Shown: positions 6,045 to 50,675 of the stretch, one piece after another
How the letters are laid out: the number at the start of each line of letters is the position of its first letter
How positions within the stretch are numbered: position 1 is the first letter of the stretch
Virus record (IMG/VR): IMGVR_UViG_3300025913_000020
DNA length: 64,000 bases
Source of the DNA: a virus
Taxonomy: Duplodnaviria > Heunggongvirae > Uroviricota > Caudoviricetes
Reading direction: 5' to 3' (one strand)
The notes under the pieces: model-generated
What the model was told of the DNA's origin: nothing
Database searches by the model: none
The model's input: the letters and a program-made list of their open reading frames with translations, nothing else
Program-made: the position numbers and the translations under genes

Positions 6045-6266
6045 ATGAATGCTTTGACCACCGGAATGTTCATTCGCGTGCGCGCTGACCATGAGAATAC
6101 GGCACGCGCTGGCCTCGACGGAATGGTCATGGCCAACAGCCCAGAGGGCGAATCCATGGTCGGTCTGTTCTTCTGGTGTGACCGTCATAACAATTTTCAG
6201 CGCTGCTACTGCGTCGGCACCGAAGCCTGGGACAAAAGCGAACTGGACTTTGCGACGGTTGAATAA
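6045..6266 (+). CDS. hypothetical protein (73 aa)
   Basis: first gene of plus block; ATG 26 nt after motif; no SD. Confidence 0.45.
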   Translation: MNALTTGMFIRVRADHENTARAGLDGMVMANSPEGESMVGLFFWCDRHNNFQRCYCVGTEAWDKSELDFATVE

Positions 6267-6280
6267 AAGTTTACAATTTC
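6265..6280 (+). promoter_or_regulatory. partial motif copy AAAAGTTTACAATTTC ending 1 nt before ATG 6282
   Basis: half-site GTTTACAATTT between stop of 6045..6266 and start of 6282..6707. Confidence 0.3.
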
Positions 6281-6281
6281 G

Positions 6282-6707
6282 ATGAAACCTATTCCTGATC
6301 ACCTGATCCATAATACTGCCGCGCTACTCGAACGAACCTTGTTCGCGGTCGAGGCTACGAGCTTTGAGCAATTTTGCCTGTGGGAACAGCACGCCAAAGG
6401 CAGCTTGCACCGGATTCACCGTGAGCTGCACTGGGAGCAGATGAGTCCTGGCTGGATGGAACAGGTCGGTAAAATCGGCAGGTGTCCCTGCATGATAGAA
6501 CTCTCCTGGGCCGAGATCGACGGTCAGATTATTTTGTTCTGGCATCAGTGCAGTGCAGTGACCGATTCACGCCAGGCCGAAGCCTGGTTCGAAAAGAATT
6601 TTAAGAAGAAGTGGGATGGCGGCACACGTCGCGCCATGATCGACGCCCAGAACTTCGGCCACTGCCTGTCAGCGATCAAAGAAGCCAATTTAGCCACCCA
6701 TGCCTGA
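6282..6707 (+). CDS. hypothetical protein (141 aa)
   Basis: complete ORF, operon context. Confidence 0.5.
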   Translation: MKPIPDHLIHNTAALLERTLFAVEATSFEQFCLWEQHAKGSLHRIHRELHWEQMSPGWMEQVGKIGRCPCMIELSWAEIDGQIILFWHQCSAVTDSRQAEAWFEKNFKKKWDGGTRRAMIDAQNFGHCLSAIKEANLATHA

Positions 6708-12763: not shown

Positions 12764-13229
12764 AGATTTTGGTGGTTGAGAGTCCCTGTACATTTTGCAA
12801 AAGCGCGATCTCGCATTTGGCGCGCCGGGCAGCTTGGACCTCTTTCTTGTCCAGCGTCTCCAGTGTATAATCTCCGCCCTTGAACCAAACGTCCGGCTTG
12901 AATTCGGTGATCCATTTGGTGATGCGTGACTCGTTAAAGATGAAAACCATGCTCACCATTTCCAGAGCGGCAACTACTGTGGCGCGCTGGATGTCCGGGT
13001 TGATAGGGCGGCCTGGACCCTTTAGGCGTTTTACCGACGTGTCACTATTCAGCAGTACGATCAGGTGTGAGCACTTCGAACGGGCGTGAGTCAGGTAGTG
13101 GATGTGACCGGCGTGAAGAATATCGAAGCATCCGTTTGTGACGCCGATCCTGCCAGACCGGTGCAGCTTTATCCATTCCTTGGCCTCTTTCAGGGTGCCG
13201 ATGATCTTGTGCGCGCCGTCGTAACTCAT
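12735..13229 (-). CDS. cytidylyltransferase-fold nucleotidyltransferase, RfaE/HldE domain-II-like (sugar-phosphate adenylyl/cytidylyltransferase)
   Basis: IGVTNGCFDILHAGHIHYL = (T/H)xGH nucleotidyltransferase motif as in HldE C-domain; LLNSDTSVKRLKGPGRPINP matches RfaE-II. Confidence 0.7.
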   Translation of the reverse strand: MSYDGAHKIIGTLKEAKEWIKLHRSGRIGVTNGCFDILHAGHIHYLTHARSKCSHLIVLLNSDTSVKRLKGPGRPINPDIQRATVVAALEMVSMVFIFNESRITKWITEFKPDVWFKGGDYTLETLDKKEVQAARRAKCEIALLQNVQGLSTTKIYERIKKTLG

Positions 13230-13235
13230 GACCAG

Positions 13236-13254
13236 ATTTTGTTTACAATTTCTG
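13236..13254 (-). promoter_or_regulatory. motif copy ATTTTGTTTACAATTTCTG 8 nt upstream of ATG 13229
   Basis: between stop of 13261..14061 and start of 12735..13229. Confidence 0.45.
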
Positions 13255-13260
13255 TTACCG

Positions 13261-14061
13261 TCAATCTTTTCCTTCGATGATGCGCTGAAGCTCCTGCTGG
13301 CCGCTGTGGGAATCCAAGCAGCCGTTGTAGTAAGGTCCGTTCACGAAACCGATTTCATCGTGCGTGATTCCCGCCTGCTCGGTGGTTGCTTCGTACCAGT
13401 TTCCCAGAAGTTCCTTGCGGTAGGTGACGCAAAGCCGGGCGACTGCTTCACGTGCTTTGTAAAGTTTGATGGCGAGCGGGCGGCGGGTGGCAGCGGCAGC
13501 GTTTTCCCATCCTTTGACGATCTCAGGTTTAACTTCAGACCACTGGGGCAGCGGCGCGCCGCTGATGGCTGACTTCCAGCCAGTGGTTTCACAGTAGGCT
13601 TCGTAGGCGAGTTGTCCGGGCGTTTTTTCCATAATTTTATCGGGTTGGGTTTTACTTTCTTCTTTTAATATCTTGCGGGCTTCGGTTTCCCCGGACGCTG
13701 TCAGTGCCACACGTTGAGGATTGCCGTTGATGAAATGCCGTGATACTTCGATAAGACCGCGTCGTCGTAGCGCCTTCAGGGTGTTCATCTGAGCCACGAA
13801 GGTAGGACTCTGGCCCTCGGCCTCATCTGGATGGACAAAGCATGGGTTGTTGTACTGCGTTTTTAGCCAGGAATGTTGCACCAGCACACCACCGCAAAGG
13901 TGCATTTTGATTAACGCGGCGTCCATCAGTTCAGAGGTAGCGTCCCCGAGCATGGTCGGCACCGTTTCCTTTTTCTTGAATGTTCTGGAGCTGCTTTGCA
14001 GGACTGCTTTTTTATCAGCTTCGAATTCGGCTTTTATTTTGGATTGGAAGTCAGTTTTCAT
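13261..14061 (-). CDS. hypothetical protein (266 aa)
   Basis: complete ORF; no motif recognised. Confidence 0.5.
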   Translation of the reverse strand: MKTDFQSKIKAEFEADKKAVLQSSSRTFKKKETVPTMLGDATSELMDAALIKMHLCGGVLVQHSWLKTQYNNPCFVHPDEAEGQSPTFVAQMNTLKALRRRGLIEVSRHFINGNPQRVALTASGETEARKILKEESKTQPDKIMEKTPGQLAYEAYCETTGWKSAISGAPLPQWSEVKPEIVKGWENAAAATRRPLAIKLYKAREAVARLCVTYRKELLGNWYEATTEQAGITHDEIGFVNGPYYNGCLDSHSGQQELQRIIEGKD

Positions 14062-14888: not shown

Positions 14889-14893
14889 CGGGA

Positions 14894-15834: not shown

Positions 15835-15840
15835 AGCGCT

Positions 15841-16481: not shown

Positions 16482-16484
16482 GTT

Positions 16485-16766: not shown

Positions 16767-17038
16767 TGAATGATTTCTCCGTTGAGGATTCTAAAGTGGT
16801 AGGGGCACCGATCCGGTACCGGCGTTTTATCGTTCCAGCAGTGAAGGACGCTCGGCTCCATCGTGAGCGTGTTGAAGTCCTCGGAAGTGATCTTCCACCG
16901 ACCGGGAGGAGCCTGTCCGTAAGTGACGGTGACTGGCGCGCCGACGTGGTGCTTTCCGCAGGTCGGGCAGCGCAGGATCAGCATCATGCCTTTTTCGTCA
17001 TGATGGACAAAGCCAGGATCGAGATCAACAAGGCGCAT
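16760..17038 (-). CDS. zinc-ribbon protein (CPTCGKHH...CPYH)
   Basis: 92 aa. Confidence 0.45.
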   Translation of the reverse strand: MRLVDLDPGFVHHDEKGMMLILRCPTCGKHHVGAPVTVTYGQAPPGRWKITSEDFNTLTMEPSVLHCWNDKTPVPDRCPYHFRILNGEIIQC

Positions 17039-17328
17039 TATTCCAGTCCGACAGTGAACTCGACGCTGTAGTTGCGGCGTTCAATGTCCTGTTCTGTGTG
17101 CGGTTTCAACTCACCGTCCTTTTTCTCGATGGTCACACGGGCCGCGCCATCGCCATCCACGAAAATTCCAGCCTGGCCACTGTGGCCGGAGCGCGTGCTG
17201 TTGATCCAGGAGAACAGTTCCTCGATTTTGTCCAGGTGCTCGGGCCGGGCACTAATGGTGTACGTGCGCGTTTCCTTCTGGGATTTGTCCTCTCCGATGA
17301 TCGCTTCAATGATTGGGCTTGCACTCAT
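17038..17328 (-). CDS. hypothetical protein (96 aa)
   Basis: operon context. Confidence 0.45.
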   Translation of the reverse strand: MSASPIIEAIIGEDKSQKETRTYTISARPEHLDKIEELFSWINSTRSGHSGQAGIFVDGDGAARVTIEKKDGELKPHTEQDIERRNYSVEFTVGLE

Positions 17329-17336
17329 TTGTTTGG

Positions 17337-18728
17337 TCAGTGGTAAATCTTTCCGTCATCACCCAGGTAAAGGTGGAATTCGCCGAAAGCTTTTGAGGAG
17401 CGCGTCAGCCGGTCGGCCTGCGGTTTGGGCCAGTCACCGTCCCAGAATCCAGCGCCATGGCCGTTGCGTGTGAGCCAGAAGTCGTGACCGCCCTGCTCTG
17501 TACCGCCAACCGATAAATCTTCTGCGTTCTGCGCTTCGAAATTCTGGCAGTCTTCCTCCATCTCAAGCACGGTGCCTTCATCAAGCTCTGGTTCCTCCAC
17601 GTCCAGGGCTTTGCCTTCGGCGTGCAGCTTCTCCAGGTCTTCCTTCAACTGCTCCTCATCGGTGAAATACGCCGCCTCGATGTAAGCGTTGAGAAATTTG
17701 GATCGTTCAGGCGGGCGGGTTATTTCTTTCCAATCGTCTTCGTCCTCGCGGATTCCTTTTCCGCGTGCTGCCGCGTGGAACCGATTCCAGGTGGAGAAAT
17801 GATTCTTCGGCCAATTTCCTTTGGCCTCCAACCAGCGCGCCATCTCAACTTCGCTGCCTTTGAACTCGTCCAGAGTCATGGTGTCGAAGTACACTTTAGC
17901 CGCCCAAAGGTTATCACTTTCTTTGGTGACGTAGGTCTTCATCCAATCGTTAATCTGATACGTCCACGTGAATTGACCGTGCTGCGTAAATCCAGCGTTG
18001 GAAAGAAGTCCCTGTAAATCAGGCGTGATGTCTTTCCAGTCGTCGTCATCGGCAAAAGCTTCCTCTACCCAGTTGATTTTGTATTTGGCGTAGATGGACT
18101 TTAGGCGAGAAATGACTTCATCGGTTTTGAGTCCTATTTCTTTGATCTGCTGACCTTGCCGATTGGTGAGCCAACCGAGGATGTCCCAGGTGTCATCGTA
18201 GCGGTGCCAGATCACGAGAGAGCTGATTCCGGGTAATCCGTTTCTCATCCAGATCGCTTCGGTTTCCCGGCGAAAACGTAACTTCTCCAGGCGATCTTCC
18301 AGCGGCAGCGCGGTGACATCCTTCCAGTCTTCGTCCGCTAAAGCTTCCTGCACCGGCCAGTCTTTGATGTCCACGGCACGCACTTTGCGCTTCGAGAGGA
18401 AAGCCGCCATGGCCCGGTGATGGCCATCCAGGATATTGGGACCGTCGATGAGAATCGGGCCTTCTGGATTCTTACGGTAGGCTTTGACGAGCGACTTGTG
18501 GACCGGCATCTCCGCCACGTGGGTCAACTCTCTGAGTGGGTTACCGTTGGCAAGAAGCTTATCTGGATCGACTTCTTTGATCGGCAGCGGCACGTCCAGC
18601 TCGTGGTGGCCGAACATGTCCCAGACCCACTGTTCTGGACTGTGATCAGCAAATAAATCACCCAAGGTGATGGTCTGTCCTTGCTCAGTTTCAAGGACAT
18701 ACTTGATAATTTGCTGCGCGCTCGTCAC
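17337..18728 (-). CDS. ParB/sulfiredoxin-like nuclease-domain protein with three acidic DWKD(I/V)T repeats
   Basis: 463 aa; ILIDGPNILDGHHRAMAA carries the DGHHR ParB-nuclease signature; repeats ADEDWKDVT, DDDDWKDIT, EDEDDWKEIT. Confidence 0.6.
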   Translation of the reverse strand: MTSAQQIIKYVLETEQGQTITLGDLFADHSPEQWVWDMFGHHELDVPLPIKEVDPDKLLANGNPLRELTHVAEMPVHKSLVKAYRKNPEGPILIDGPNILDGHHRAMAAFLSKRKVRAVDIKDWPVQEALADEDWKDVTALPLEDRLEKLRFRRETEAIWMRNGLPGISSLVIWHRYDDTWDILGWLTNRQGQQIKEIGLKTDEVISRLKSIYAKYKINWVEEAFADDDDWKDITPDLQGLLSNAGFTQHGQFTWTYQINDWMKTYVTKESDNLWAAKVYFDTMTLDEFKGSEVEMARWLEAKGNWPKNHFSTWNRFHAAARGKGIREDEDDWKEITRPPERSKFLNAYIEAAYFTDEEQLKEDLEKLHAEGKALDVEEPELDEGTVLEMEEDCQNFEAQNAEDLSVGGTEQGGHDFWLTRNGHGAGFWDGDWPKPQADRLTRSSKAFGEFHLYLGDDGKIYH

Positions 18729-18732
18729 GCCC

Positions 18733-18881
18733 TAACTACTGTGCTGAAGGAAGACCTGTTTTACACACCAAACCTTGCGTTTGGCGATGTCTTCCGGGTA
18801 ACCCGCCTTTCGGAGGGATAGGTAGAAAAACTTCAATTCCCGCTCCTGTTCCGGCGTTAGTTGACGTGCTTTCCGCTTCAT
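18733..18881 (-). CDS. small basic protein (49 aa)
   Basis: MKRKARQLTPEQERELKFFYLSLRKAGYPEDIAKRKVW...; below track cutoff. Confidence 0.3.
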
Positions 18882-18920
18882 CAGCAGTCGGCTGCCCGAC
18901 TACTAATAAATACGATTCCC

Positions 18921-18939
18921 GCAAAAGTTTACGCGTTAC
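18921..18939 (-). promoter_or_regulatory. degenerate motif copy CGCAAAAGTTTACGCGTTA
   Basis: intergenic between 18929..19540 and small gene 18881. Confidence 0.25.
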
Positions 18940-19540
18940 AGTAAAATCCCCAAGGAGCCGAGGAGTGTTCTATGTTTGGCTCCCAACGATTTTTCAAGGT
19001 GACGCATTCCCACTGCGCAGCCGGTTTTCCAGCGCTATCGGTGAGCCAGCGCACGGACTGGATGCGAATAATCCGATCAGCACGCATGAAGATCGTCGGG
19101 CTGCCGCCGTAAAGGTGAGCCAACATGACGTTCTTGATGTCCTTGGTCTCCTGGTAAATGGCCACGACACTGGCACCAACTTTGAGCAGGCTTGCGCAAT
19201 CGGCTGCGGGGTTGGTTAAGGTTTCGCAGTGGTCGATAATCATGGTCTGGTGAGGGCGAGAGCGCGCTGACCAGTCACCGTGTTCGCCTTCGAAATCAAC
19301 AGAAATTGTCGTCTTGGCGTTGAAAAGCCTTTTGGCCAGCAGGGTTTTTCCGGTCTTGGGTTTTCCGATCAAGACGGTGAGTGTTGGCTTTACCTGCGGC
19401 TCGGTCCAGAACTGGTCCAGACGAAAGTCTTCGGCGACAGCGACGACTGGCTTTGGTTCACTCAGCGCCTTGACGATGAGTGGGGCAGCGAACGGAGTCC
19501 AAGCCAGCAGCTTAAGAAGGGATCGGCGGTTGATTTTCAT
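18929..19540 (-). CDS. P-loop NTPase (kinase/sulfotransferase-like) co-transcribed with fcl/gmd
   Basis: start [12 protein letters not shown] (ATGA overlap with 19537); Walker A VLIGKPKTGKTLLAKRL. Confidence 0.5.
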   Translation of the reverse strand: MKINRRSLLKLLAWTPFAAPLIVKALSEPKPVVAVAEDFRLDQFWTEPQVKPTLTVLIGKPKTGKTLLAKRLFNAKTTISVDFEGEHGDWSARSRPHQTMIIDHCETLTNPAADCASLLKVGASVVAIYQETKDIKNVMLAHLYGGSPTIFMRADRIIRIQSVRWLTDSAGKPAAQWECVTLKNRWEPNIEHSSAPWGFYCNA

Positions 19541-20475
19541 TTGGTGGTTGCGTGGTTTTTCAGGAAGTCGGCATAGGCAATCTTCAGGCCCGCTTCCAGG
19601 GTTACGGACGGCTTCCATCCTAGCGCCATGACCTTGGAGCTGTCCACAAATTTGATCGGGGTGCCGACGACGCCCTTCGGGTCGAACACCAGTTGGTCGC
19701 GCCCGAGGCCCACGGTGTCAGCTACCAGCTCCGCCAGTTCTCGGATCGAAATGTCCGTGCCGTAGCCGATATTGATCGGGGCTTCGTCGTTGTAATTTTC
19801 CATCACCGTGACGCAGGCGGCAGCCAGGTCGTCGGAGTACAGGAACTCCCGGCGCGCCGTGCCGTCGCCCCAGACGTGGACGTGCTCCTGGCCGCTGACC
19901 TTTGCCTGGTAGAACTTGCGGATCAGGTCCGGGATGACGTGGCAGCCGGGCTTGTAGGTGTCATTGATACCGTACAGGTTCGTCGGCATGACGCTGATGA
20001 AGTTGTCACCAGACTGTTTACGGTACGCCTGGCACAGTTTCAGGCCGGTGATCTTGGCCAAGGCGTAAAATTCATTGCTCGGTTCCAGCGGTCCGGTCAT
20101 CAGGTATTCTTCCTTGATCGGCTGCGGACAGAGCTTCGGGTAGATGCACGAGCTGCCGAAGAACATGAGCTTTTTAACGCCCGTGACGTGCGCTGTTTCG
20201 ATGACGTTGAGCTGGATTTCCAGATTGGTGACCAGCATCGACACCGGTTGCTTCATGTTGCCTTCGATCCCGGCGACTTTAGCTGCCGCCAGGAAGACGT
20301 ATTCCGGTTCATGCTTCAGAAAGAATTTCACCGTCTGACCGATGTCGGTCAAATCGAGTTCGCTCCGGGGTGCGGAGAGAAGATTAGTGAAACCTTGGGC
20401 AGTGAGCTGGCGCATCAACGCAGAGCCGACGAGGCCCTTGTGACCGCACACGAGGATTTTGGAGTTCTTGTTCAT
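19537..20475 (-). CDS. fcl: GDP-L-fucose synthase (GDP-4-keto-6-deoxymannose 3,5-epimerase/4-reductase)
   Basis: 312 aa; [15 protein letters not shown] Rossmann motif, [18 protein letters not shown] catalytic YxxxK; immediately downstream of gmd. Confidence 0.85.
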
Positions 20476-21485
20476 TTTGGGTTTTTGCGTACGTCTTCGA
20501 TGTCGGCCTGCACCATTTTGCAGACCAGGGATTTGAAATCGACTTCGGGCTTCCAGCCCAATTCCTGTGCTGCTTTCCGGGCGTCACCGCACAGGTAGGG
20601 GACCTCGGACGGACGCATGTATTTCTCGTCCGTCTCAATAAACATGTGATGATCCAGTCCGGCAAACTTAAACGCGTTGAAGGCGAAGTTCTTCACGCTG
20701 TGGGCCTCCCCGGTCGCGATGACGTAATCGTTCGGTTTGTCCATTTGCAGCATCATCCACATGGCGCGCACGTAGTCCTCGGCGTCGCCCCAGTCGCGCT
20801 TCGCATCCAGGTTCCCGAGCGCCACTTTCTCTTGCAGTCCGGCTTTGATCCTGGCCACGGCACGGGTGATCTTGCGCGTGACGAAGGTTTCTCCCCGGCG
20901 CGGGCTTTCGTGGTTGAACAGGATGCCGCAGCTAATATGCAGTCCATGTGCCTCTCGGGCATTGACGCACATGTTGTGCGCAAAAACTTTGGCTGCCGCG
21001 TAGGGTGAGCGCGGGTGGAATCGGGTGGTTTCATTCTGAACCAGTTTCCCGTCAACAGTTGACATCGAGGTCCCGTACATTTCCGAGGAGGACGCCTGGT
21101 AGAAGCGCGCCTTCGGGCAGACGAGGCGGAAGGACTCCAGCAGATTCAGCGTGCCGATCCCAGTCACCTGAGCCGTGTAAACGGGCTGCTCGAAGCTGAC
21201 TTTTACGTGGGATTGTGCGGCCAGGTTGTAAATCTCGTCCGGCTGGACCTTCGCCAGAATGTGGTGCAGCGAAACGGAATCCATCATGTCGCCGTGGTGC
21301 AGGTGCAGCTTGTCGAAGATGTGGTCGATCCGGCTGGTGTTGAAGGTCGAACTGCGCCGCATAATACCGTGGACCTCGTAACCCTTCCTCAATAAAAGCT
21401 CTGCCAGGTAGGAGCCGTCCTGGCCGGTAATGCCTGTGATCAAAGCCTTTTTGGTTGGTTGCTCGGATGTGGATTCGGTCGTCAT
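20472..21485 (-). CDS. gmd: GDP-mannose 4,6-dehydratase
   Basis: 337 aa; [49 protein letters not shown] (YxxxK) are canonical GMD motifs. Confidence 0.9.
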
Positions 21486-22207: not shown

Positions 22208-22815
22208 TCGCCCAGGATTTCGTCGATAGCGTCGAGATGGCCTTGAATCTTGCTGCGCGCCTCGCGGAACTTTTCCAGGATGACCTGGTCTTTGCTCCGG
22301 CGATACATCAGCGCCATCATAGCTAAATACGACAGTTCAGGTGAGTTGCAGACCTTGCGGGCAAAAGCTTCGAATTGATTCAGGGCGTCGGCGCGTTTGG
22401 GAGTGGGCGTTGGGCCGTGCGCTTGCTCGAACCCATTGGCAACCTTCTCACGGCTTTCGGCTAAATTAAGAGTCGGCTGGCTGTCCGTGGACGACGCTCG
22501 GTTCCTCAACCCGTTCGTCCATGAAGTGGGCCAGCCGATATTTGCAGAATCATTGTCTTTATTGGCCAGCCACCAGGTGGCGTCACTGATCCCACGCAGG
22601 GACGCGGTGATGTGGCCAGGGAGATCGCGCCTCCACTCCGTGAATTTAGTGGTGCGCGTTTTCGAGGCGAAACTTATTTGAGCTTCGCTGGCACCGACGA
22701 GAATGATAAACGAAGTTGTCGGAAAGGGCGGCGGATTAAGCTCGCTGACATCACACTTGACCAGGGGTTCGTGGGGTTCCGAAGTTGCCTTCAAAAGTGA
22801 CTGCGTTGTATCCAT
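22204..22815 (-). CDS. hypothetical protein (203 aa)
   Basis: ATGA overlap downstream; motif 6 nt upstream of ATG. Confidence 0.5.
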   Translation of the reverse strand: MDTTQSLLKATSEPHEPLVKCDVSELNPPPFPTTSFIILVGASEAQISFASKTRTTKFTEWRRDLPGHITASLRGISDATWWLANKDNDSANIGWPTSWTNGLRNRASSTDSQPTLNLAESREKVANGFEQAHGPTPTPKRADALNQFEAFARKVCNSPELSYLAMMALMYRRSKDQVILEKFREARSKIQGHLDAIDEILGE

Positions 22816-22820
22816 ACTCG

Positions 22821-22837
22821 AAAAAGTTTACATTTTC
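22821..22837 (-). promoter_or_regulatory. motif copy AAAAAGTTTACATTTTC, 5 nt from ATG 22815
   Basis: intergenic after 22862..23188. Confidence 0.45.
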
Positions 22838-22861
22838 TTCGTGGACCGCGCAACCCCAAAA

Positions 22862-28816: not shown

Positions 28817-28839
28817 GAAATTGTAAACAATTTTTATTT
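28817..28839 (-). promoter_or_regulatory. motif GAAATTGTAAACAATTTTTATTT
   Basis: intergenic; perfect 12-bp palindrome ATTGTAAACAAT. Confidence 0.55.
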
Positions 28840-29298
28840 AACTTCGCGATATTCTTTTACCTTAACAAAGGCAAGGACTTCCGAGTCGTCATTGAAATCG
28901 CTTAAGTTGCCGTTGCTACCTGGCAGCTTCTCCCAGATATTACCGTCCTTTTCGAACAGTCCGCCATCAGGAATATCACGGACGGCACAAACGCGTCCGG
29001 TCGGCACGCATTTCAAGGGCGAACCATCCGGCAGCGTGATCAGACGCATTTCTTTTTTGTTTTTGCGTGCCGCCTGCCTGAGCGTGATCGGCACGTAGCA
29101 AAACTGATTCGGATCATCGGTGACTGGATCAAACTTCTGCTTCGTGAATCTGCCGTGCCAGGTGCCGGTGTGGCACTCCGAACACAGGATCATGCCGCTG
29201 CTTTTCTTCTTACCGGAGTCAACCAGGCGCGTCCAGTAGTTGCCGTGGAGCGCGGTGTTGTCGATACCGTGGCATTTGTCGCAAACGAACAGTGGCAT
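28834..29298 (-). CDS. Cys/His-rich zinc-binding protein (154 aa)
   Basis: CDKCHG...CSECHTGTWHG. Confidence 0.5.
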   Translation of the reverse strand: MPLFVCDKCHGIDNTALHGNYWTRLVDSGKKKSSGMILCSECHTGTWHGRFTKQKFDPVTDDPNQFCYVPITLRQAARKNKKEMRLITLPDGSPLKCVPTGRVCAVRDIPDGGLFEKDGNIWEKLPGSNGNLSDFNDDSEVLAFVKVKEYREVK

Positions 29299-30789: not shown

Positions 30790-31018
30790 ACTTTTGGAGC
30801 TTCCCGAACGTCTGGAGCTTTTCCGCGTCCTCGTCCGAGATTTCGAAACCAAATTCTTCCTCAATGGCCATGAGGACTTCAACGGCGTCGAGGGAGTCCG
30901 CTCCGAGATCGTCAATGAAGTTGGTTTCGGGTTTGAGCTGCGATTCATCGACGCTAAGCTGCTCGACGATGACTTCTTTAAGGCGCTGTTCGACAGTTTT
31001 ATTAGTAGAATTTGACAT
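30764..31018 (-). CDS. acpP: acyl carrier protein
   Basis: 84 aa; [17 protein letters not shown] = ACP phosphopantetheine-attachment (DSL) motif; acidic helical composition. Confidence 0.8.
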
Positions 31019-31022
31019 AGGT

Positions 31023-31040
31023 GAAAATGTTTACGTTTTG
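31023..31040 (-). promoter_or_regulatory. motif GAAAATGTTTACGTTTTG 5 nt upstream of ACP ATG
   Basis: intergenic 31019-31060. Confidence 0.45.
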
Positions 31041-31060
31041 TCTTTCGGTTGGTCAAGCGC

Positions 31061-32796: not shown

Positions 32797-32820
32797 GCAC
32801 AATACACTTACACTATTGAC

Positions 32821-32844
32821 GTAAAATTGTAAACATTTTTTATT
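32821..32844 (-). promoter_or_regulatory. motif GTAAAATTGTAAACATTTTTTATT
   Basis: between terminator 32852-32880 and gene start 32796. Confidence 0.55.
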
Positions 32845-32851
32845 ACGAAAA

Positions 32852-32890
32852 AAGCGGCCTGGAATTGCTCCCAGGCCGCTTGGTTTAATC
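32852..32890 (-). terminator. Rho-independent terminator (10-bp GC stem AGCGGCCTGG/CCAGGCCGCT, loop ~9 nt, then UUUUUUCGUAAUAAAAAA on minus transcript)
   Basis: immediately after stop of 32899..33918. Confidence 0.7.
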
Positions 32891-35914: not shown

Positions 35915-35933
35915 GGTTAATGTAAACAAAAGG
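35915..35933 (-). promoter_or_regulatory. motif GGTTAATGTAAACAAAAGG 26 nt upstream of ATG 35895
   Basis: intergenic. Confidence 0.45.
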
Positions 35934-36394: not shown

Positions 36395-36416
36395 GGAAAA
36401 TGTAAACAATTTACTG
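36395..36416 (-). promoter_or_regulatory. motif GGAAAATGTAAACAATTTACTG
   Basis: intergenic 36340-36434. Confidence 0.5.
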
Positions 36417-38147: not shown

Positions 38148-38190
38148 TGTAATGTGGATGGGTTCCTTGTAATGGTGGTTAGTTAGGTTC

Positions 38191-38221
38191 GGCGGCCCTG
38201 AGTGGGGCCGCCATTTTTATT
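38191..38221 (+). other. GC hairpin GGCGGCCC-tgagtg-GGGCCGCC followed by ATTTTTATT on plus strand
   Basis: between two minus-strand genes; plus-sense terminator-like, minus-sense lacks U-tract. Confidence 0.3.
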
Positions 38222-38447
38222 GCTCTCGCATCAAAGTTTCTACGCGTTCCATGAATTTGGCTTCGTTGGCGGCAGCTTCCATGTGATCACGCCGGGTGAA
38301 AAAATCCATGCCGAAAATCTGGGTCATCGCTGATTTATCCGAACCCTCTCCTTCCAGGGATTCACGTTTGGCTTTCCAGTAGGCGTAGTCCTCGCGGGCC
38401 TTCCTGAGCTGGCGGGCTTTGAGCCATTTGACGAATCTTTCGATCAT
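38217..38447 (-). CDS. hypothetical protein (76 aa)
   Basis: leaderless promoter upstream. Confidence 0.45.
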   Translation of the reverse strand: MIERFVKWLKARQLRKAREDYAYWKAKRESLEGEGSDKSAMTQIFGMDFFTRRDHMEAAANEAKFMERVETLMREQ

Positions 38448-38481
38448 GTGAAAAATGTAAACAATTTATTGTTGGTGTCAA
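38448..38481 (-). promoter_or_regulatory. sigma70-like promoter on minus strand: TTGACA(38481-38476)-16 nt-TACATT(38459-38454)-6 nt-ATG(38447); -10 lies inside palindromic motif
   Basis: hexamers and spacing read directly; predicts leaderless transcript. Confidence 0.55.
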
Positions 38482-41125: not shown

Positions 41126-41553
41126 TCCTTTTCTCCCTTGATCACCGAGTCATTGAATTCGTTCGTCGTCAGCGCACCTTTGGCAAGCTGCACCAGGAGC
41201 GACTTGCCGCGCTCAATGCCTGCTTCGTGCGACAGTTGGATCGCCTCCTGGATGGCCTTAAAGAGATCGTTGAGCGCCTGGCGTTGTTCCGGCGTGGCAA
41301 TGCGGATGGCCGCGTCCAAGCCGCGTGGGTAAAAGGTCCCGTAATCCGGGACGATGGGACTCACGTCACGTTCAGCGTTGGCTGAAAGCGTGCGCTTATC
41401 CACCTGGGGGAACATCAGCTCGATGATGCGGTAGTAGGCCGCCGTCGCTTTCGGGTAAAGCGTGCCGTCGCCAGAGATAAACCTGGGACGGAAGTGCGCC
41501 TGGGCAACCCAGAAGGAGTTTTCAGGAGCTTTTGGTTTGCGACGAGTGCCCAT
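41122..41553 (-). CDS. hypothetical protein (143 aa)
   Basis: ATGA overlap; motif 5 nt upstream. Confidence 0.5.
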   Translation of the reverse strand: MGTRRKPKAPENSFWVAQAHFRPRFISGDGTLYPKATAAYYRIIELMFPQVDKRTLSANAERDVSPIVPDYGTFYPRGLDAAIRIATPEQRQALNDLFKAIQEAIQLSHEAGIERGKSLLVQLAKGALTTNEFNDSVIKGEKE

Positions 41554-41556
41554 AAT

Positions 41557-41577
41557 CGAAAATGTTTACAAATTCTG
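41557..41577 (-). promoter_or_regulatory. motif CGAAAATGTTTACAAATTCTG with TTGATT 17 nt upstream
   Basis: intergenic 41554-41587. Confidence 0.5.
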
Positions 41578-41587
41578 TCAGACTCAA

Positions 41588-42103
41588 TCAATGAAAATAT
41601 CCGATATTAGAAATTCTCCTGCCGCCTTTCGGGGTGCGCCCGAAACGACTGAGGAATTCGAACTTGATGCTGTCTGACTCTGCCCTGTCCATCTCTGGCG
41701 TGGATCGGCTGCCGAGTGCTTCGAACACGGCGCACTGCGCCTGCATGTCTCGCACTTCGTCCCGGCCATCCACCTGAAATTTATCAGAAGGTTTCTGCGC
41801 GTAGCACTTGGGATCAGAGCAACCGGAGCTGAAGAAGTATTCGAAAGCCACGAGGAACGATGTCGCGCTGAGATCAGTCAGGTTCTCGACAAATTCCAGG
41901 AAGCAGGCTGCGTGCTCCGGGCTGTAATCCTTTTTGATGCCGTCATGGATCATCTCCAGGTGGGTTGGACCGAGGTCGCCGCGCTTGGGTCCCCGCCCGG
42001 CGTAATAGCCAGAGCGCGCCAGCAACCGGCCAGAGCACCAGGCGTCAATGGCTTCGTAAAAGCTGGCCGGTGGATTCGTGGGTTTGGGTAGTTCTTTTTT
42101 CAT
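41588..42103 (-). CDS. hypothetical protein (171 aa)
   Basis: complete ORF; small hairpin TTTCGGG-gtgcg-CCCGAAA in 3-prime end. Confidence 0.45.
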   Translation of the reverse strand: MKKELPKPTNPPASFYEAIDAWCSGRLLARSGYYAGRGPKRGDLGPTHLEMIHDGIKKDYSPEHAACFLEFVENLTDLSATSFLVAFEYFFSSGCSDPKCYAQKPSDKFQVDGRDEVRDMQAQCAVFEALGSRSTPEMDRAESDSIKFEFLSRFGRTPKGGRRISNIGYFH

Positions 42104-42325: not shown

Positions 42326-43786
42326 TCACAGCTTTCGGTCGCGGATCGCCTGGGCCAGTTTGGAACCAATCATGGTCAGTGCCTTGTAGTACTCCTCGCT
42401 CAGGTGATTCTCGCTGTACTCGTGGCCGAACTCGTGGATGATCAGGTCATCAATTTCCTGCTGGTTCGTCTCACGATTGAACCAGTCGTAGCCGAGCCGA
42501 CCGACGTTGAACACCAGGGTCCCGCTCGGGCCGTAAGTGGCACCGTAGGGCCAGGTTGCTTCCGCCGCAAAGACCACGCTGATACTTTTGCCGAGCACGA
42601 TCCGGGCGAACGCTTTGGCGTAAGTTTCCACGTGCTGCATCCCGACCGTTACTTCCTTGACCAGCTTCAATGGCGCGCCGTCCGGGCTGTAGGGCTTGGG
42701 TGAAGGCGTGACCTGACCGGCAGGCAGCATCGCGCCCACGCTCTTGACGTTACTCCAGGCGGCCTTGCTGAGCTGATTGCCGGTGACCACCGTGAAGCCA
42801 GCGGCAGCGGCACGGCTGTTGGATTCGATGTCGGACGGATCGTAGATGACGCGTTTCTCACCGAAGCGCTGAGTCATGCACGCCTCGACCGCTGCGGGTG
42901 CGATGTCCGGTGAAGTCAAAGCTTCAGCGGCCCAGGACGTGTTGGCATCCTCGCTGTCGATGATTGTTGACATGTTATTCACAGCGGCTACTGCGAGCTG
43001 TTTTCGGAAGGAAGGCAGGACTTCTTCACGGTCCATCGTGAGCGGAACTTTCTGACCCACGTTGAAGATGTATTTGCCGTCGATCTCGCACACGGGTATC
43101 CCCATCTCGTAGATGGCAGCCGGGCAGCCTTCGCCGGGAACAGCGCGGTAAACTTCCACATTCGTCAGCCGGGTGGTTTTGACCATGTTGCCTTCACCGT
43201 CAGCGACCTCAGTGGCCAGGGCAGCTTTGAATCGCGTCATGCCCGGCGCACTGACGAGGGCTTTGCCGTTGATAGTCGTGATGATGGTCTTTTCGCCAAC
43301 CGGAGGAATCAGCCGAGCGCAGGCATTTACAATCTGGTCGATCTCGTCCTTTTTCACGCGAATCATCATTGAGATCACCGAACCCTTTTCCCGCTTCAAT
43401 CCTGGCGACCGTTGCCTGCCGTGTTTGGTAAAATTGACGGTGCCGGTGGTTGTGGAGACGCAGGCTTCTGAAGCGAGGGCCAGCACCAGCTTCTCGCCGA
43501 GGTTGAACCGACCGCGCTTTTCCGGGTTGGCCTTTTTCTTGGACTCAGCGAACAAGGTGTAGGCGTGCGTGAGGTCAGAGAATCCATCCGGCGCATCGTC
43601 CGTCACACGCAGCATCGCCTGGCCAGGATACCCCGGCACCGACTCAAGCGTGACATCGACCTGAGTGACGCCTTCTTCGTCCCAGGCATTCTGGATCAGT
43701 TCAAAGATAATGAACTCCTTGCCCTTGCGCTGGAGGATTTTCGCCAGCCCGTCTTTGTCTATTTCAAACCATGATGAAGTTTTCAT
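42326..43786 (-). CDS. GHKL-type (Bergerat-fold) ATPase fused to C-terminal HExxHxxxxxH zinc-metallopeptidase-like motif
   Basis: N-box ELIQNAWDE, G1 DDAPDGFSD, G2 GRFNLGEK; C-terminal LIIHEFGHEYSENH; real start MKTSSWFEIDKDG 7 nt after -10. Confidence 0.6.
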   Translation of the reverse strand: MKTSSWFEIDKDGLAKILQRKGKEFIIFELIQNAWDEEGVTQVDVTLESVPGYPGQAMLRVTDDAPDGFSDLTHAYTLFAESKKKANPEKRGRFNLGEKLVLALASEACVSTTTGTVNFTKHGRQRSPGLKREKGSVISMMIRVKKDEIDQIVNACARLIPPVGEKTIITTINGKALVSAPGMTRFKAALATEVADGEGNMVKTTRLTNVEVYRAVPGEGCPAAIYEMGIPVCEIDGKYIFNVGQKVPLTMDREEVLPSFRKQLAVAAVNNMSTIIDSEDANTSWAAEALTSPDIAPAAVEACMTQRFGEKRVIYDPSDIESNSRAAAAGFTVVTGNQLSKAAWSNVKSVGAMLPAGQVTPSPKPYSPDGAPLKLVKEVTVGMQHVETYAKAFARIVLGKSISVVFAAEATWPYGATYGPSGTLVFNVGRLGYDWFNRETNQQEIDDLIIHEFGHEYSENHLSEEYYKALTMIGSKLAQAIRDRKL

Positions 43787-43793
43787 ACTCAGG

Positions 43794-43834
43794 ATTGTAA
43801 ACAATTACAGTCCAATGTCAATACACAAAGTGTA
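43794..43834 (-). promoter_or_regulatory. sigma70-like promoter on minus strand: TTGACA(43821-43816)-16 nt-TACAAT(43799-43794)-7 nt-ATG(43786), plus upstream element TCAATACACAAAGTGTA
   Basis: read directly; second element recurs at 46141-46160. Confidence 0.55.
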
Positions 43835-44590: not shown

Positions 44591-45108
44591 ATCGCTTCTT
44601 TCGCTAGAACCAGCTCCACTTTCTCGACGCCGATTTTGCGTTGATCTCTCCACCAGCTTTCACGCCCCCAGTTGATGGCTAGGAGCTGCGCTTTCGCGGG
44701 GTCGTTGGCATACACTCCAATGCTGACTTTGGGAGCGGAGTCGCCCCACAGCGTGACATGATAGTCAAACGCACCGGACCCGATATGAAGCAGGTCGCGG
44801 CGTTCGGCTTCCTCCGCTGTGATCGTCGGGAAATCGGTAGGCGCTGGAATTGTGCTCCAGGACTGTGAGGTCGGGAGCGACTTGATTCCCTGCGGGCGCT
44901 TCCGACTGCAATACTTTCCATCCTTGGCGACCATTTTACCGGAGAGCAGATCAATCACGACGCCTTTGAATTTAGCCGTGTATTCGCACGCTGATTTTAT
45001 ATCAAAGTGCCGGTCGCGGGCGACCCAGTGATTGAATCGTCCGATCCAGGAGAAGACGAGATAGTTGCAGGGGCGTTTGTCGGTGATGGTTTGGGTGATA
45101 GTGTTCAT
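44587..45108 (-). CDS. hypothetical protein (173 aa)
   Basis: ATGA overlap. Confidence 0.45.
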   Translation of the reverse strand: MNTITQTITDKRPCNYLVFSWIGRFNHWVARDRHFDIKSACEYTAKFKGVVIDLLSGKMVAKDGKYCSRKRPQGIKSLPTSQSWSTIPAPTDFPTITAEEAERRDLLHIGSGAFDYHVTLWGDSAPKVSIGVYANDPAKAQLLAINWGRESWWRDQRKIGVEKVELVLAKEAI

Positions 45109-46109
45109 TATGCTGGCGGGTTGAAGTTTTCGTAAACAAATCGTTCAGTGTCGTCCACAGATAGTCCGGCTGCGGTAGCTGCTTTCCAGAGAGCCGAGCT
45201 GCGTTGGTCTTCTGCGCTGATGTCGCGGCGTTCGCGGAGACCTGGATTGGCTGCGAAGATCGCTTCCCATCTGGCAACGTCTTCGGGGTTGTGCTTCGTA
45301 ATGGTGAATTTGGCCGGGCGTTTCCAGAAGCCGAATAGCTCGTCGTTTTTGCTTGGCTCGAACGTGGCGGTAAATTCCACTTCATCACCCTTGCGCGGGA
45401 ACATCACCTGGCCAGCGGCGTTGTATTCAGGAGCATTGCCGAAGGCGCGCACACCGTTGCCGAAGTCGATGGTGAGCTTGGTGACCATTTTCCGAGGATC
45501 GAAGCCAGGAATAGTTTTGGTGGACAGGACAGTGCCTTTGACTGTGTGGCGGCCACTGAGAGCTTTGCCGGTCGCGGAGGCACGGCGCGCTTCGTCTTTT
45601 TCGCGGATGCTTTCGAGGGTGGTGATCTGCTTCTCGGACAGCTCACCGAAACGGCGCATCTTTTCCAGCATGTCCTTGGCGATCTTGGGAGCACGGGCCA
45701 GGCGGCACCAGCCGATGATGCTCATCGCCTCGGGGTGCGCGGTCAAGAAATCAGCTTCGCGCTTATTGCAAGCCAGGCGCTCGGCGAGGGCCACAGTGTG
45801 CTGTGCGATCATTCTGTCGAACCGGCGCAGATTTTCCACCTTGGCGGCACAGTCACGGCCAACCCAGTAGCCGGTGCCCGTGGGCGCGTGGACAATGGCG
45901 CAGGCGTACTTGAGAGTGTGGCCGCAACAGCCGCAGCGATTGGGTTGGTTTTGAGCTTTGAAAGTCTGCCAGAGCGGTTCGTCGATGACATCCATCTCAG
46001 CCTCGACTGATCCATTTTCTCCTGCGTCCGGGTTGAAGCCGAGGACCACGCAGACAGCAACGAGCCGGAGTTCGTTCACCGGCAGTCCTTTAATAGATTC
46101 GTTTGTCAT
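45108..46109 (-). CDS. hypothetical protein (333 aa) with CGCCGH zinc cluster
   Basis: leaderless promoter upstream. Confidence 0.5.
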   Translation of the reverse strand: MTNESIKGLPVNELRLVAVCVVLGFNPDAGENGSVEAEMDVIDEPLWQTFKAQNQPNRCGCCGHTLKYACAIVHAPTGTGYWVGRDCAAKVENLRRFDRMIAQHTVALAERLACNKREADFLTAHPEAMSIIGWCRLARAPKIAKDMLEKMRRFGELSEKQITTLESIREKDEARRASATGKALSGRHTVKGTVLSTKTIPGFDPRKMVTKLTIDFGNGVRAFGNAPEYNAAGQVMFPRKGDEVEFTATFEPSKNDELFGFWKRPAKFTITKHNPEDVARWEAIFAANPGLRERRDISAEDQRSSALWKAATAAGLSVDDTERFVYENFNPPA

Positions 46110-46116
46110 GCCAGAA

Positions 46117-46160
46117 ATGTAAACGAAATAGAATTGTTGTCAATACCCAAAGTGTAAATA
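46117..46160 (-). promoter_or_regulatory. sigma70-like promoter on minus strand: TTGACA(46144-46139)-16 nt-TACATT(46122-46117)-6/7 nt-ATG(46109), plus element TCAATACCCAAAGTGTAAAT
   Basis: read directly (coordinates +/-1). Confidence 0.5.
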
Positions 46161-46236: not shown

Positions 46237-46273
46237 CCCGGCCCTCTTAGGGTTGGAGGGCCGGGTTTGTTGG
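46237..46273 (+). terminator. plus-strand intrinsic-terminator-like hairpin CCCGGCCCTC-ttagggttg-GAGGGCCGGG followed by TTTGTTGG
   Basis: in 165-nt intergenic region; no annotated plus gene upstream, so may end a small RNA. Confidence 0.4.
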
Positions 46274-46475: not shown

Positions 46476-48221
46476 CGTTGCGCTGGCTCGGATTCTCAGC
46501 TCGCGATCCTGTTCCATCAGGTCGGGAGCGCGCAGGGCTGTTAGCGCGTTTCCAAACGTGCTGGAGTTCACGCTGTATCCCGTCGCGTCTGAAATCTCCT
46601 GGCGCGTGGCAAACTCCGGGAAGCGCGTCAGCAGGTAACTGAAAATCTTTCCCGCTGCGCCGCTCAGCTTATTCACCCAGAGATTTCTCAGAGCTTCACC
46701 TTTTGGCAACGGTTCAAAGTTTTTCAACAGGGCGCGAGCCTCGGGTATTGCAGTCAGCGTGTCGCCGCTGCGGATGATCGCGTTGTTTTTGGAAAGCTCG
46801 GTCAGCCCGTTGCCGAACGTGCTTGAAGTCACGCTGTAGCCGGATAGAAGCGCGGCCTGGCTGCGGGTCCGCCCTTCGGGATAACTGAGCAGCACGGTCA
46901 GAATCGCTGACGCACACTTGGAAAGTCCACCCGAGGATGGATCATGCACCGGCGATGAAAAATCGTGCCGAGTGGCGACAACTGGAGCCGGGATCGCCTT
47001 GGGTGCTACCGGTGTCGCAACCGCCATACTCGTCTTCTGGATCACGATCAATTTGTTTACAATATCGGTGCGTAGCGCTACCGCCTGATTGGCCAGCTCA
47101 GAGAAGTTCACCACCGTCTTGCTGAAAGTAGTGCAGGCTTCCTCGATTCGCTTCAGAGTTTTTTCCTGCTCGGGCGTTAGCACGGGAACTTCGACCTTTT
47201 CGATTCGCGTGTCCACGACCGTCACCGGCCTGGGCGCGACAGCGGCCTGTTCCGCTTTTACCAGCTTTTGTTTCAAAACAGCCACTTGTTGTTTCAAATG
47301 GGCCGGATCATTCTCGTTGGCGCGCTCAATCGTTTCACGAATCTCATTTCCCAGGCGCACGAGATCGACCTTGGCCAGCTTTTGCGGGATGATGACTTTT
47401 TCACCTGCCTTGGGCGTGGCTGATGAGTTGAAGGTCCGGCGCTGCCGGATGGTGATCCGTTGAAAGATGCGCAGCCAGCCGGGCGACCATATCCAGCCCT
47501 CGCCGGTGTGAAGCGATGCCAGGGACTGCATCATGATGTCGCGCTGTTCCTTCGTGCCGTTGCGCTTCACCCAATCGTCGATGGCGTCCTGGTCCTGGGG
47601 CGAGTTGAGCTGAAGTACGATCAACAGTTCGGTCTGAGTGAAGACATTCTTATTGAGCACAGCCGGGCGCTGCGTGATCAGCGTCGTGCCAATCCCACGG
47701 ATGCCTCCCCGGCGCACCAGGGCTTCGAAGGCTCCGAGCATTCGCTGCTGGCCGTCCTGGGGTTTCTGGGGAGCGAAAGAGTCGGCTTCGTCCACGAACA
47801 GGTGCAGCGGATTGCGGTTTTGATTTTTACGCCGGTAGAGGCGTTCGGCAAAGTCAGTGGCGAAGCGATCCTGCTGTGCGTTGCTTTCGGTCGAGGAGAG
47901 GTCGATGACGTAGTAGCCAGGATGGTCAACCACCATGTCGGCGATGACCCGGCCTGCCGTATATTCCAGTGGAACGTCCGCGTGCTCACCGCCGATGATC
48001 ACCACTGGCAAACCTTCGCGCAGACCGTTTGCTGATGAACGCAGGCCCCACCAGGCACCGGTCGGATCGAGCACGGCAAACGGCTGTGACGCCGCCACCA
48101 GCTCCTCGGCGATCACCGATCCTGTGTAGGTCTTACCGACCCGGCGCATGGCCATGATGGAACACGTCTGGGTGACGAAATCCAACGGCAGCGTCAGTTC
48201 CTTTGAGATTTTGAGGCTCAT
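46461..48221 (-). CDS. FtsK/HerA-superfamily P-loop ATPase with two C-terminal tandem winged-HTH (FtsK-gamma-like) repeats
   Basis: 586 aa; Walker A AMRRVGKTY, FAVLDPTGAWWG, Walker B LHLFVDEAD; C-terminal repeats ...SGYSVTSSTFGNGLTEL... and ...TGYSVNSSTFGNALTAL... Confidence 0.7.
   Translation of the reverse strand: MSLKISKELTLPLDFVTQTCSIMAMRRVGKTYTGSVIAEELVAASQPFAVLDPTGAWWGLRSSANGLREGLPVVIIGGEHADVPLEYTAGRVIADMVVDHPGYYVIDLSSTESNAQQDRFATDFAERLYRRKNQNRNPLHLFVDEADSFAPQKPQDGQQRMLGAFEALVRRGGIRGIGTTLITQRPAVLNKNVFTQTELLIVLQLNSPQDQDAIDDWVKRNGTKEQRDIMMQSLASLHTGEGWIWSPGWLRIFQRITIRQRRTFNSSATPKAGEKVIIPQKLAKVDLVRLGNEIRETIERANENDPAHLKQQVAVLKQKLVKAEQAAVAPRPVTVVDTRIEKVEVPVLTPEQEKTLKRIEEACTTFSKTVVNFSELANQAVALRTDIVNKLIVIQKTSMAVATPVAPKAIPAPVVATRHDFSSPVHDPSSGGLSKCASAILTVLLSYPEGRTRSQAALLSGYSVTSSTFGNGLTELSKNNAIIRSGDTLTAIPEARALLKNFEPLPKGEALRNLWVNKLSGAAGKIFSYLLTRFPEFATRQEISDATGYSVNSSTFGNALTALRAPDLMEQDRELRIRASATLFET
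47048..47068 (-). promoter_or_regulatory. internal motif copy TCAATTTGTTTACAATATCGG inside ATPase gene, 23 nt upstream of in-frame ATG at 47027
   Basis: would express the C-terminal 188-aa tandem wHTH part separately. Confidence 0.3.
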
Positions 48222-49858: not shown

Positions 49859-49892
49859 TGATTGGTTGGTTAGGTGGTTAGGTGGTTAATTC

Positions 49893-50321
49893 TTACTCAA
49901 ACGCGCCGCTGGCCTGTAATTGCAGGGCGGCAGCAGCTCCTCTCATGAGCATGTCCACATCTTCGGCGGTGGCTTTGCCGTTTGTCCATTCGGACAGATT
50001 GACCAGCATTTTGCGATACTGGCGATCACTGTAATCCTTGCACCACTTCTCGAAGACTTCCTGGAAGTTGGCGCTGGTACGCAATGGCGTGAAGTGTTCG
50101 CCGAGGTCGGCGGCCATCAAATCGAGTTTTGTCTTGTAGTCGGTGTCGGGCAGCAAGAGAGTTTTTGTCTCCCGCGCCATGACCTCATCCAGGACATCTT
50201 GCGGGTCTCGCGACGGGTCTTTTGCTTTGGCAGTTTCCAGGAAGATGTCATTTATTTTTCCGGCCTTCTCCATCACTTCTTCCAACTGCCTCATTGCTTT
50301 GAGTTTATTTAGTGCGCTCAT
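49893..50321 (-). CDS. hypothetical helical protein (142 aa)
   Basis: complete ORF. Confidence 0.5.
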   Translation of the reverse strand: MSALNKLKAMRQLEEVMEKAGKINDIFLETAKAKDPSRDPQDVLDEVMARETKTLLLPDTDYKTKLDLMAADLGEHFTPLRTSANFQEVFEKWCKDYSDRQYRKMLVNLSEWTNGKATAEDVDMLMRGAAAALQLQASGAFE

Positions 50322-50614
50322 GGTTTGTTTAATCGGTCAACTCGCCAGACTTGGTCCTGTCCACAATAGAAAGTCCAGTCATTGGCTCCTACATAAGAAC
50401 CGTGATCGTCGCGGCCTATAACCACCACGGCGATATGCGTCTTCCAGGCGTTGCTTGGGACAGGCAGCGTCTGACCTGGAGGTAAATTGAGGCAGAGGAG
50501 CTGATTCTCTGAAATGACATCGAGATTAGCGGTCGTGTTATTGACCACGGTCAACTGCTGCGAGGCACAGCCGCACAACAGGGACAAGAAGATGACCATC
50601 TTCACCAGCTTCAT
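50318..50614 (-). CDS. small secreted protein (possible lipoprotein)
   Basis: MKLVKMVIFLSLLCGCASQQ signal peptide. Confidence 0.5.
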   Translation of the reverse strand: MKLVKMVIFLSLLCGCASQQLTVVNNTTANLDVISENQLLCLNLPPGQTLPVPSNAWKTHIAVVVIGRDDHGSYVGANDWTFYCGQDQVWRVDRLNKP

Positions 50615-50617
50615 TGA

Positions 50618-50642
50618 GTGAAAAATGTAAACAATTTTTTGC
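50618..50642. promoter_or_regulatory. motif GTGAAAAATGTAAACAATTTTTTGC in divergent region
   Basis: 7 nt from minus ATG 50614; 38 nt from plus ATG 50676. Confidence 0.55.
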
Positions 50643-50675
50643 TTACGTCAACGACGAAGTTCGTTCTTTAAGGAT

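Follow-up and report, generated by a model that had tools for sequence, protein, structure and literature searches.

Directly in front of a start codon at positions 38448-38481 of the DNA examined here stands what looks like a complete promoter, which raises the question of whether transcription from this and similar sites begins at the coding sequence itself and yields messages without a leader. The window, by which we mean the whole 64,000-nucleotide stretch that was analysed, carries tail-spike, tail and terminase-like genes and is one segment of a metagenomic contig of 245,196 bp. The source is probably a large or jumbo phage, given that the lengths of related contigs cluster at 190-250 kb. 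A megablast search with 16 kb of the window against the GenBank phage collection returned no match, and tRNA and Rfam scans of the window found nothing.

Promoter-like sequences next to start codons

A preliminary description of this DNA had placed TTGACA, a 16-nt spacer and TACATT or TACAAT on the minus strand at three sites, with an ATG following after 6-7 nt. When the sequence was reread this layout was present at all three (Table 1), and the ATGs at 38447, 43786 and 46109 lie 6, 7 and 6 nt past the -10 hexamer, respectively; the coordinates given earlier for site 3 were shifted by one base. At site 1 the promoter occupies the entire 40-nt gap past the stop codon of a 258-aa gene, and its footprint is also found in the orthologous gaps of four related contigs (L005-L008). 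An independent database gene call uses identical ATGs for the 76-, 486- and 333-aa ORFs. The promoter-adjacent ATG is the first start codon past a stop at sites 1 and 3, while at site 2 ATG 43786 is the sole plausible start of the 486-aa gene because residues W6 and F7 are invariant. The 333-aa protein is without relatives in IMG/VR.

Further copies of the same build were found. A fourth promoter precedes a 98-aa ORF and has an orthologue at position 2225 of contig L008, and a possible fifth copy heads a plus-strand module, where 4 nt separate the hexamer from ATG 6282, rather little for transcription to begin at the A. Allowing at most one mismatch, TTGACA-N16-TACAWT has 4 matches in the 64-kb window as compared to 0.24 expected. 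The preliminary description had asked whether the -35 box recurs at the other copies of the motif; it does so as TTGACG at 50651, but it is lacking at five or six further copies of the -10 motif, which lie 23-59 nt upstream of starts without a Shine-Dalgarno (SD) sequence and usually follow an A-tract (ATAAAAATTGTTTACAAT). Two hairpins were also noted. One separates the site 3 promoter from the terminase-like gene and may serve as a terminator or insulator; the other (38191-38212), 3' of the 76-aa gene, is GC-rich with an 8-bp stem, lacks a U-run on the sense strand and has its T-run on the plus (antisense) strand, as is also the case in L006.

Table 1. Promoters, motif copies and genes of the window
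Feature	Position	Strand	Details
Site 1 promoter	38448..38481	minus	-35 TTGACA 38481-38476; 16-nt spacer ending TTGTT; -10 TACATT 38459-38454; tttcac; ATG 38447-38445
76-aa ORF, predicted leaderless cistron	38217..38447	minus	ATG is 7th base past -10; followed by hairpin 38191-38212
Site 2 promoter	43787..43834	minus	element TACACTTT 43834-43827; -35 TTGACA 43821-43816; 16 nt; -10 TACAAT 43799-43794; cctgagt (7 nt); ATG 43786-43784
486-aa GHKL-ATPase/HExxH protein gene	42326..43786	minus	opens at site 2 ATG
Site 3 promoter	46110..46156	minus	element TACACTTT 46156-46149; -35 TTGACA 46143-46138; 16 nt; -10 TACATT 46121-46116; tctggc (6 nt); ATG 46109-46107
333-aa ORF	45108..46109	minus	opens at site 3 promoter-adjacent ATG
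Hairpin, 10 bp, GC-rich	46237..46265	minus	without U-run; between terminase-like gene and site 3 promoter
Fourth promoter	50612..50651	minus	TTGACG 50651-50646; 16 nt; TACATT 50629-50624; 9 nt; ATG 50614
98-aa ORF	50318-50614	minus	downstream of fourth promoter
Possible fifth copy	6250..6284	plus	TTGCGA-16-TACAAT-4 nt-ATG 6282; head of plus-strand module
Leadered copy	32820..32881	minus	strong terminator hairpin 32881-32852, then ATAAAAAATGTT-TACAAT; -10 32831-32826; no -35; 29-nt SD-less leader; ATG 32796
Leadered copy	28820..28846	minus	AAATAAAAATTGTT-TACAAT; -10 28825-28820; no -35; 28-nt leader; ATG 28791
Leadered copy	35919..35929	minus	TTTTGTT-TACATT; -10 35924-35919; no -35; 23-nt leader; ATG 35895
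Leadered copy	36399..36409	minus	AAATTGTT-TACATT; -10 36404-36399; no -35; 59-nt leader; ATG 36339
Leadered copy	6011	plus	-10 motif; no -35
Central-AA variant	41551..41591	minus	TTGATT 41591-41586; 17 nt; TAAACA 41568-41563; 9 nt; ATG 41553; same gap conserved in L005-L008 and L212
Central-AA variant	31016..31056	minus	TTGACC 31056-31051; 17 nt; TAAACA 31033-31028; 9 nt; ATG 31018
Central-AA variant	22813..22857	minus	TTGCGC-17-TAAACT-9-ATG 22815
Copy at cytidylyltransferase-like gene	13227..13264	minus	TTGACG-17-CAAAAT-6-ATG 13229; core TGTAAACA 13247-13240 in spacer and -10
Auxiliary gene cluster	10044-21485	minus	
GDP-mannose 4,6-dehydratase	20472-21485	minus	
NAD-dependent epimerase	19537-20475	minus	
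N6/N4 DNA methylase	14058-14888	minus	
Cytidylyltransferase-like gene	12735-13229	minus	
TylF-type and FkbM-type methyltransferases	10044-11328	minus	

Enrichment, conservation and promoter type

The lineage motif to which these -10 regions belong, TTGTTTACAWTT, has 14 matches with at most one mismatch in the window, where 0.37 are expected, and 11 of the 14 fall within the intergenic DNA that makes up 6.4% of the window (P = 2e-11). Intragenic copies at 47053-47064 (plus strand, inside the terminase-like gene) and 63451-63462 (plus strand, at codons 4-8 of a 690-aa gene) may represent internal or antisense promoters or have survived by chance. Scanning for generic sigma-70 promoters with at least 10 of 12 positions matched showed no enrichment (5 matches as compared to 3.9 expected), so resemblance to sigma-70 promoters is not in itself the signal, which resides in the exact layout, its intergenic location and its conservation. 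That generic matches are about as many as in shuffled sequence would suit a chance promoter resemblance in AT-rich intergenic DNA, but the enrichment of the motif, its intergenic placement and its conservation across seven relatives speak against this, and the conservation data effectively refute it. In IMG/VR at large, an exact-pattern scan with TTGAC-N14-TTGTTTACAWT found 120 single-match contigs, and 2 of 121 matches were followed by an ATG, which is the chance level and makes the scan uninformative.

In syntenic relatives whose proteins are 62-73% identical, the -35 box, the spacer length, the -10 box and a gap of 5-10 nt to the ATG are retained, while the sequence of the spacer drifts. 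When the orthologous gaps of L005-L008 (66-73% identity in the 486-aa protein) are aligned, they retain TTGAC(A/G), a spacer of 16-17 nt, GTTTAC and an ATG 6-8 nt further on, while the spacer and flanks diverge, and this retention of elements amid drifting surroundings is a promoter footprint. The corresponding sequences are TTGACA-17-TACAAA-8-ATG in L213 and TTGACA-17-TACAAT-7-ATG in L212 (69% identity). Across the window and five relatives, some 17 promoters with a -35 box have a -10-to-start gap of 5-12 nt, and the start codon is ATG in 15 of the 17. Both layout and motif fade in relatives below ~60% identity. In L212 (595-618) a mini-ORF of 7 codons (MKGEYCL) begins at the ATG next to the promoter, and its TGA and the start codon of the GHKL gene overlap in the sequence ATGA; the promoter-adjacent ATG is thus retained although the main ORF starts 20 nt later, and leaderless initiation may here be followed by termination-reinitiation.

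These data bear out the earlier assignment to the sigma-70 type, which is very probably correct: the -35 box, the spacing, the -10 box and the 5-10 nt gap are kept in L005-L008, L089, L212 and L213. Agreement with TTGACA is 6/6 at sites 1-3, 5/6 at 50651 and 5-6/6 in the orthologues; the spacer measures 16 nt in the window and 16-17 nt in relatives; and the -10 box is TACAAT or TACATT, with -11A and -7T present. Two other promoter types were considered and set aside. A TGn extended -10 has TG at -15/-14, whereas here it lies two bases before TACAWT (TTG-TT-TACAWT), at -16/-15. A Bacteroidota-type promoter (-33 TTTG / -7 TAnnTTTG; TTG-N19-TAnnTTTG) does not fit a full TTGACA in which GACA is conserved, nor an 8th position that is not G. 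In the best explanation the motif would be a lineage-specific extended -10, TTGTT-TACAWT.

The same motif might instead be read by a sigma factor or RNA polymerase of the phage, as at T4 late or jumbo-phage promoters, in which case sigma-70 start-site geometry would not apply and transcripts may not start at the ATG. Its length of 12-20 nt, its restriction to the lineage with fading below ~60% identity, the frequent lack of a -35 box and the jumbo-phage size, 230-250 kb, at which related contigs cluster all suit that idea, and contigs this large, of which 64 kb are seen here, could encode a polymerase or sigma factor of their own, a point that counts against our main reading. We nevertheless consider a dedicated phage factor unlikely, as TTGACA is perfect or 5/6 at 16-17 nt at every ATG-abutting copy with a central TT, the -11A and -7T needed by primary sigma factors are kept, and a polymerase or sigma gene was not seen in the 64 kb examined.

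A palindromic motif and an upstream element

The motif is a palindrome, AATGT-NN-ACATT, so an additional DNA-binding factor is possible. Copies that appear reversed are those in which the central TT is replaced by AA (TTGTAAACATT). They are intergenic, their TAAACA ends ~9 nt (range 7-13) before a sense-strand ATG, and most have TTGnnn 16-18 nt upstream. The plus-strand copies were also considered as antisense promoters, but this was rejected on account of the palindrome, since they are central-AA variants at the same distance from sense ATGs and mostly carry TTGnnn at that spacing. TAAACA lacks the usual -7 T, and taking AACATT as the hexamer instead lengthens the spacer to 18-20 nt.

A second conserved element overlapping the -35 box, also pointed out earlier, proved real: the minus strand reads TACACTTTG(G/T)GTATTGA at 43834-43817 and 46156-46139, and eight related promoters share its core, TRCACTTT-N5-TTGAC, without variation. 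It was tried as a second, upstream -10 box and rejected, because the hexamer is TGCACT in 3 of the 8 copies; a role as an activator, repressor or UP-like element is likely. A near copy of the element plus -35, TACACTTACACTATTGAC, occurs on the opposite strand at 32803-32820 (plus), inside the leader of a 107-aa gene and pointing into the terminator at 32852-32881.

Both features bear on a further account, in which the palindrome (TGTTTACA / TGTAAACA) is primarily the operator of a dimeric phage or host regulator, placed over the -10 box of many promoters so that a global repressor or activator sets their timing, and the promoter look is partly a by-product. The arms are symmetric around a centre that is TT or AA only, the TT and AA versions lie equally far from the ATG, G-15 and C-10 are near-invariant beyond what a sigma-70 -10 box needs, and TRCACTTT stands upstream of some -35 boxes. 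An operator is moreover compatible with leaderless transcription. Against it, TACATT copies, which are more than half, break the symmetry at the outer arms and leave 3-bp arms as the truly invariant part; an operator alone does not explain a perfect TTGACA at a fixed 16-17 nt; and an HTH or regulator gene was not found among the window proteins scanned. We regard the operator as a doubtful, though not negligible, primary role, while the near-invariance of G-15 and C-10 together with the symmetry means that a dimeric protein may bind the motif as well.

Predicted transcript starts and translation without Shine-Dalgarno sequences

Sigma-70 polymerase starts most often at the 7th base past the -10 box, within a range of ~6-10, and prefers a purine that follows a pyrimidine. 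At sites 1-3 the A of the ATG is the 7th, 8th and 7th base past the -10 box and is preceded by C, T and C, respectively; counted from the start codon, the first T of the hexamer lies at -12, -13 and -12. In published genomes the signature of leaderless genes is a -10-like sequence whose first T is ~12 nt upstream of the start codon (PMC3160421; PMC12340547), and the position of the first T at sites 1-3 matches it. As the best explanation, and a reasonably probable one, we propose that the three sites and at least one more carry primary-sigma (sigma-70) promoters that are packed into the narrow space ahead of the first gene of a transcription unit. This packing would make the preferred start, a purine after a pyrimidine at the 7th-8th base past the -10 box, coincide with the A of the ATG. 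The mRNA would then have no leader, or one of ~3 nt at most, its 5'-terminal AUG would be recognised directly by a ribosome loaded with initiator tRNA, and downstream cistrons would rely on SD-independent internal initiation or coupling; the identity of the polymerase, the exact start site and the mode of translation are predictions from the sequence. Gaps of 9-10 nt (50614 in the window and 8789 in L005) would give leaders of 1-3 nt and not true leaderless ends. Counting against this reading, polycistronic read-through RNA could also serve as the template for translating these genes.

The near-absence of SD sequences, likewise reported before, is confirmed: among 93 crude gene calls in the window, a 4-mer core occurs at -18..-4 in 9, as compared to 8.7 +/- 2.7 at random positions, and a 5-mer occurs in 0. 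The upstream regions of called genes in five relatives give the same SD-free picture. More distant relatives, which are GC-rich contigs, have a hairpin and GGAGG before the orthologous gene, so the SD-free style is a trait of the lineage or its host. One small gene of the otherwise SD-free L213 has a perfect SD (AAGGAGGT; 2905-2924) 7 nt before its ATG, which suggests that the host keeps an anti-SD that it seldom uses. CA-rich CTAACYAMC repeats occur in the minus-strand leaders of the 117-aa gene (38174-38186; ATG 38147) and the 235-aa gene (49865-49881; ATG 49858). There are 4 matches as compared to 0.69 expected, and the sequence is retained ahead of the orthologous 117-aa gene of L005 and L006; these repeats may be an SD-independent translation enhancer of highly expressed genes. 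In predicted folding of the first 40 nt, the minimum free energy was -4.1 kcal/mol as compared to -4.5 kcal/mol in other genes (P = 0.83), so the two groups did not differ in 5' structure.

The proposal of a systematic leaderless or SD-independent strategy thus holds in its second half, for SD-independent expression, but the leaderless layout is not general, as the motif abuts the ATG in ~9-10 of ~106 genes. Most genes are internal to tightly packed operons; with central-AA variants counted, genes with an ATG-abutting motif make up about a third of the 31 genes that have an upstream gap of at least 25 nt. By our own count, copies with a -35 box have the short gap in 7 orthologous groups and the long gap in 2, whereas copies without it have the short gap in 0 and the long gap in 9. 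This variable distance to the ATG, 23-59 nt in the leadered copies, indicates that the motif works at the level of DNA and does not serve to bind ribosomes. It also bears on the possibility that the conserved AT-rich sequence is an SD-independent translation-initiation region in read-through polycistronic RNA, an unstructured enhancer of the S1 type and not a promoter. The motif does sit where a ribosome-binding site would be, both of its versions end ~9 nt before the ATG, and in a lineage without SD most genes must initiate without one anyway. Such an enhancer is nonetheless very unlikely, given that the motif is also found at those larger distances from other starts and past the terminator at 32881-32852, that a conserved -35 box at fixed spacing has no RNA role, and that most gene starts lack the motif.

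A broader and more speculative scheme, to which we give little credence as a whole, would have a phage-encoded dimeric factor or sigma act with the host polymerase in a lineage-specific programme. Copies with a -35 box would give leaderless mRNAs and A-tract copies without one would give leadered, SD-less mRNAs, as distinct temporal classes; the leaderless start would capture ribosomes in an SD-free Verrucomicrobial host, and the TT or AA centre would tune promoter strength.

Host and comparison with known systems

Verrucomicrobiota MAGs contain the closest genome-borne relatives (49-51% identity) of the GHKL-type protein of 486 aa, with more distant ones in many phyla, and the host is probably a member of the Verrucomicrobiota; some Verrucomicrobia are among the SD-scarce organisms (PMC10783764). 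The GDP-mannose dehydratase gene, with ~65% identity to many phyla, is uninformative on the host. The N-terminal part of the 486-aa protein bears the signature of the GHKL ATPase fold (PF02518/PF13589 in its relatives), and the C-terminal part has a HEFGHE motif. The protein is conserved in the neighbourhood of terminase-like genes, within prophage-like regions that belong to many phyla of bacteria and some of archaea; its profile found no PDB sequence match. The genes of the auxiliary cluster (Table 1) suggest sugar or DNA modification.

If the main reading is true, it supplies a promoter and translation-start grammar for uncultivated large phages and their SD-scarce, probably Verrucomicrobial, hosts, improves the calling of gene starts and operons in such contigs, offers compact promoter-ATG cassettes for hosts where SD-based designs fail, and adds a case of leaderless initiation that is neither actinobacterial nor from Deinococcus. 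No new mechanism is revealed.

In phage lambda, transcription from the sigma-70 promoter PRM starts on the A of the cI AUG and gives a leaderless mRNA. There the arrangement serves a single regulatory gene in an SD-using host, whereas here it is predicted for several operon-leading genes in an SD-free genome. The promoters of Thermus phage phiYS40 are not known to have a -35 box, unlike the leaderless-type copies here, which are those that have one. Middle and late transcripts of phiYS40 are reported to be leaderless and translated by the host machinery (Sevostyanova et al. 2007, as summarised in PMC3594737). Both phages are large, and the promoters here would, like those of phiYS40, give leaderless transcripts; the transcripts of phiYS40 were mapped experimentally and are linked to IF2/IF3 changes, whereas ours are predicted from sequence.

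Among bacteria, the -10 motif adjoins ORFs and gives leaderless mRNAs in Deinococcus-Thermus (PMC12340547), and a TANNNT signal precedes start codons by ~12 nt in Actinobacteria, Deinococcus and other groups (PMC3160421). In the phage, as in Deinococcus-Thermus and Actinobacteria, a TAnnnT whose first T is at about -12 stands 6-7 nt ahead of the ATG, and there is no SD; TAC-type hexamers are also common to the phage and Deinococcus, with TACACT the commonest in D. radiodurans. Unlike those bacteria, the phage has a full -35 TTGACA and a -10 box set within a longer palindromic motif, and ~10% of its genes use the layout; leadered genes of Deinococcus use GGAG, whereas those of the phage are without SD. 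The setting, a phage probably of Verrucomicrobiota, also differs from the Deinococcus-Thermus and actinobacterial cases. Bacteroidota and some Verrucomicrobia show SD-scarce initiation on leadered mRNAs (PMC10783764), and the phage resembles them in having no SD enrichment and A/T-rich upstream regions, while the TTTG/TAnnTTTG promoter type of Bacteroidota differs from the promoters here. Start-codon-abutting promoters and leaderless mRNAs are thus already established in several systems, and that they also occur in this new, uncultivated lineage of phages, whose genome is free of SD, is a well-supported prediction; what is peculiar to this lineage is the palindromic extended -10 and the link between the presence of a -35 box and the leaderless layout.
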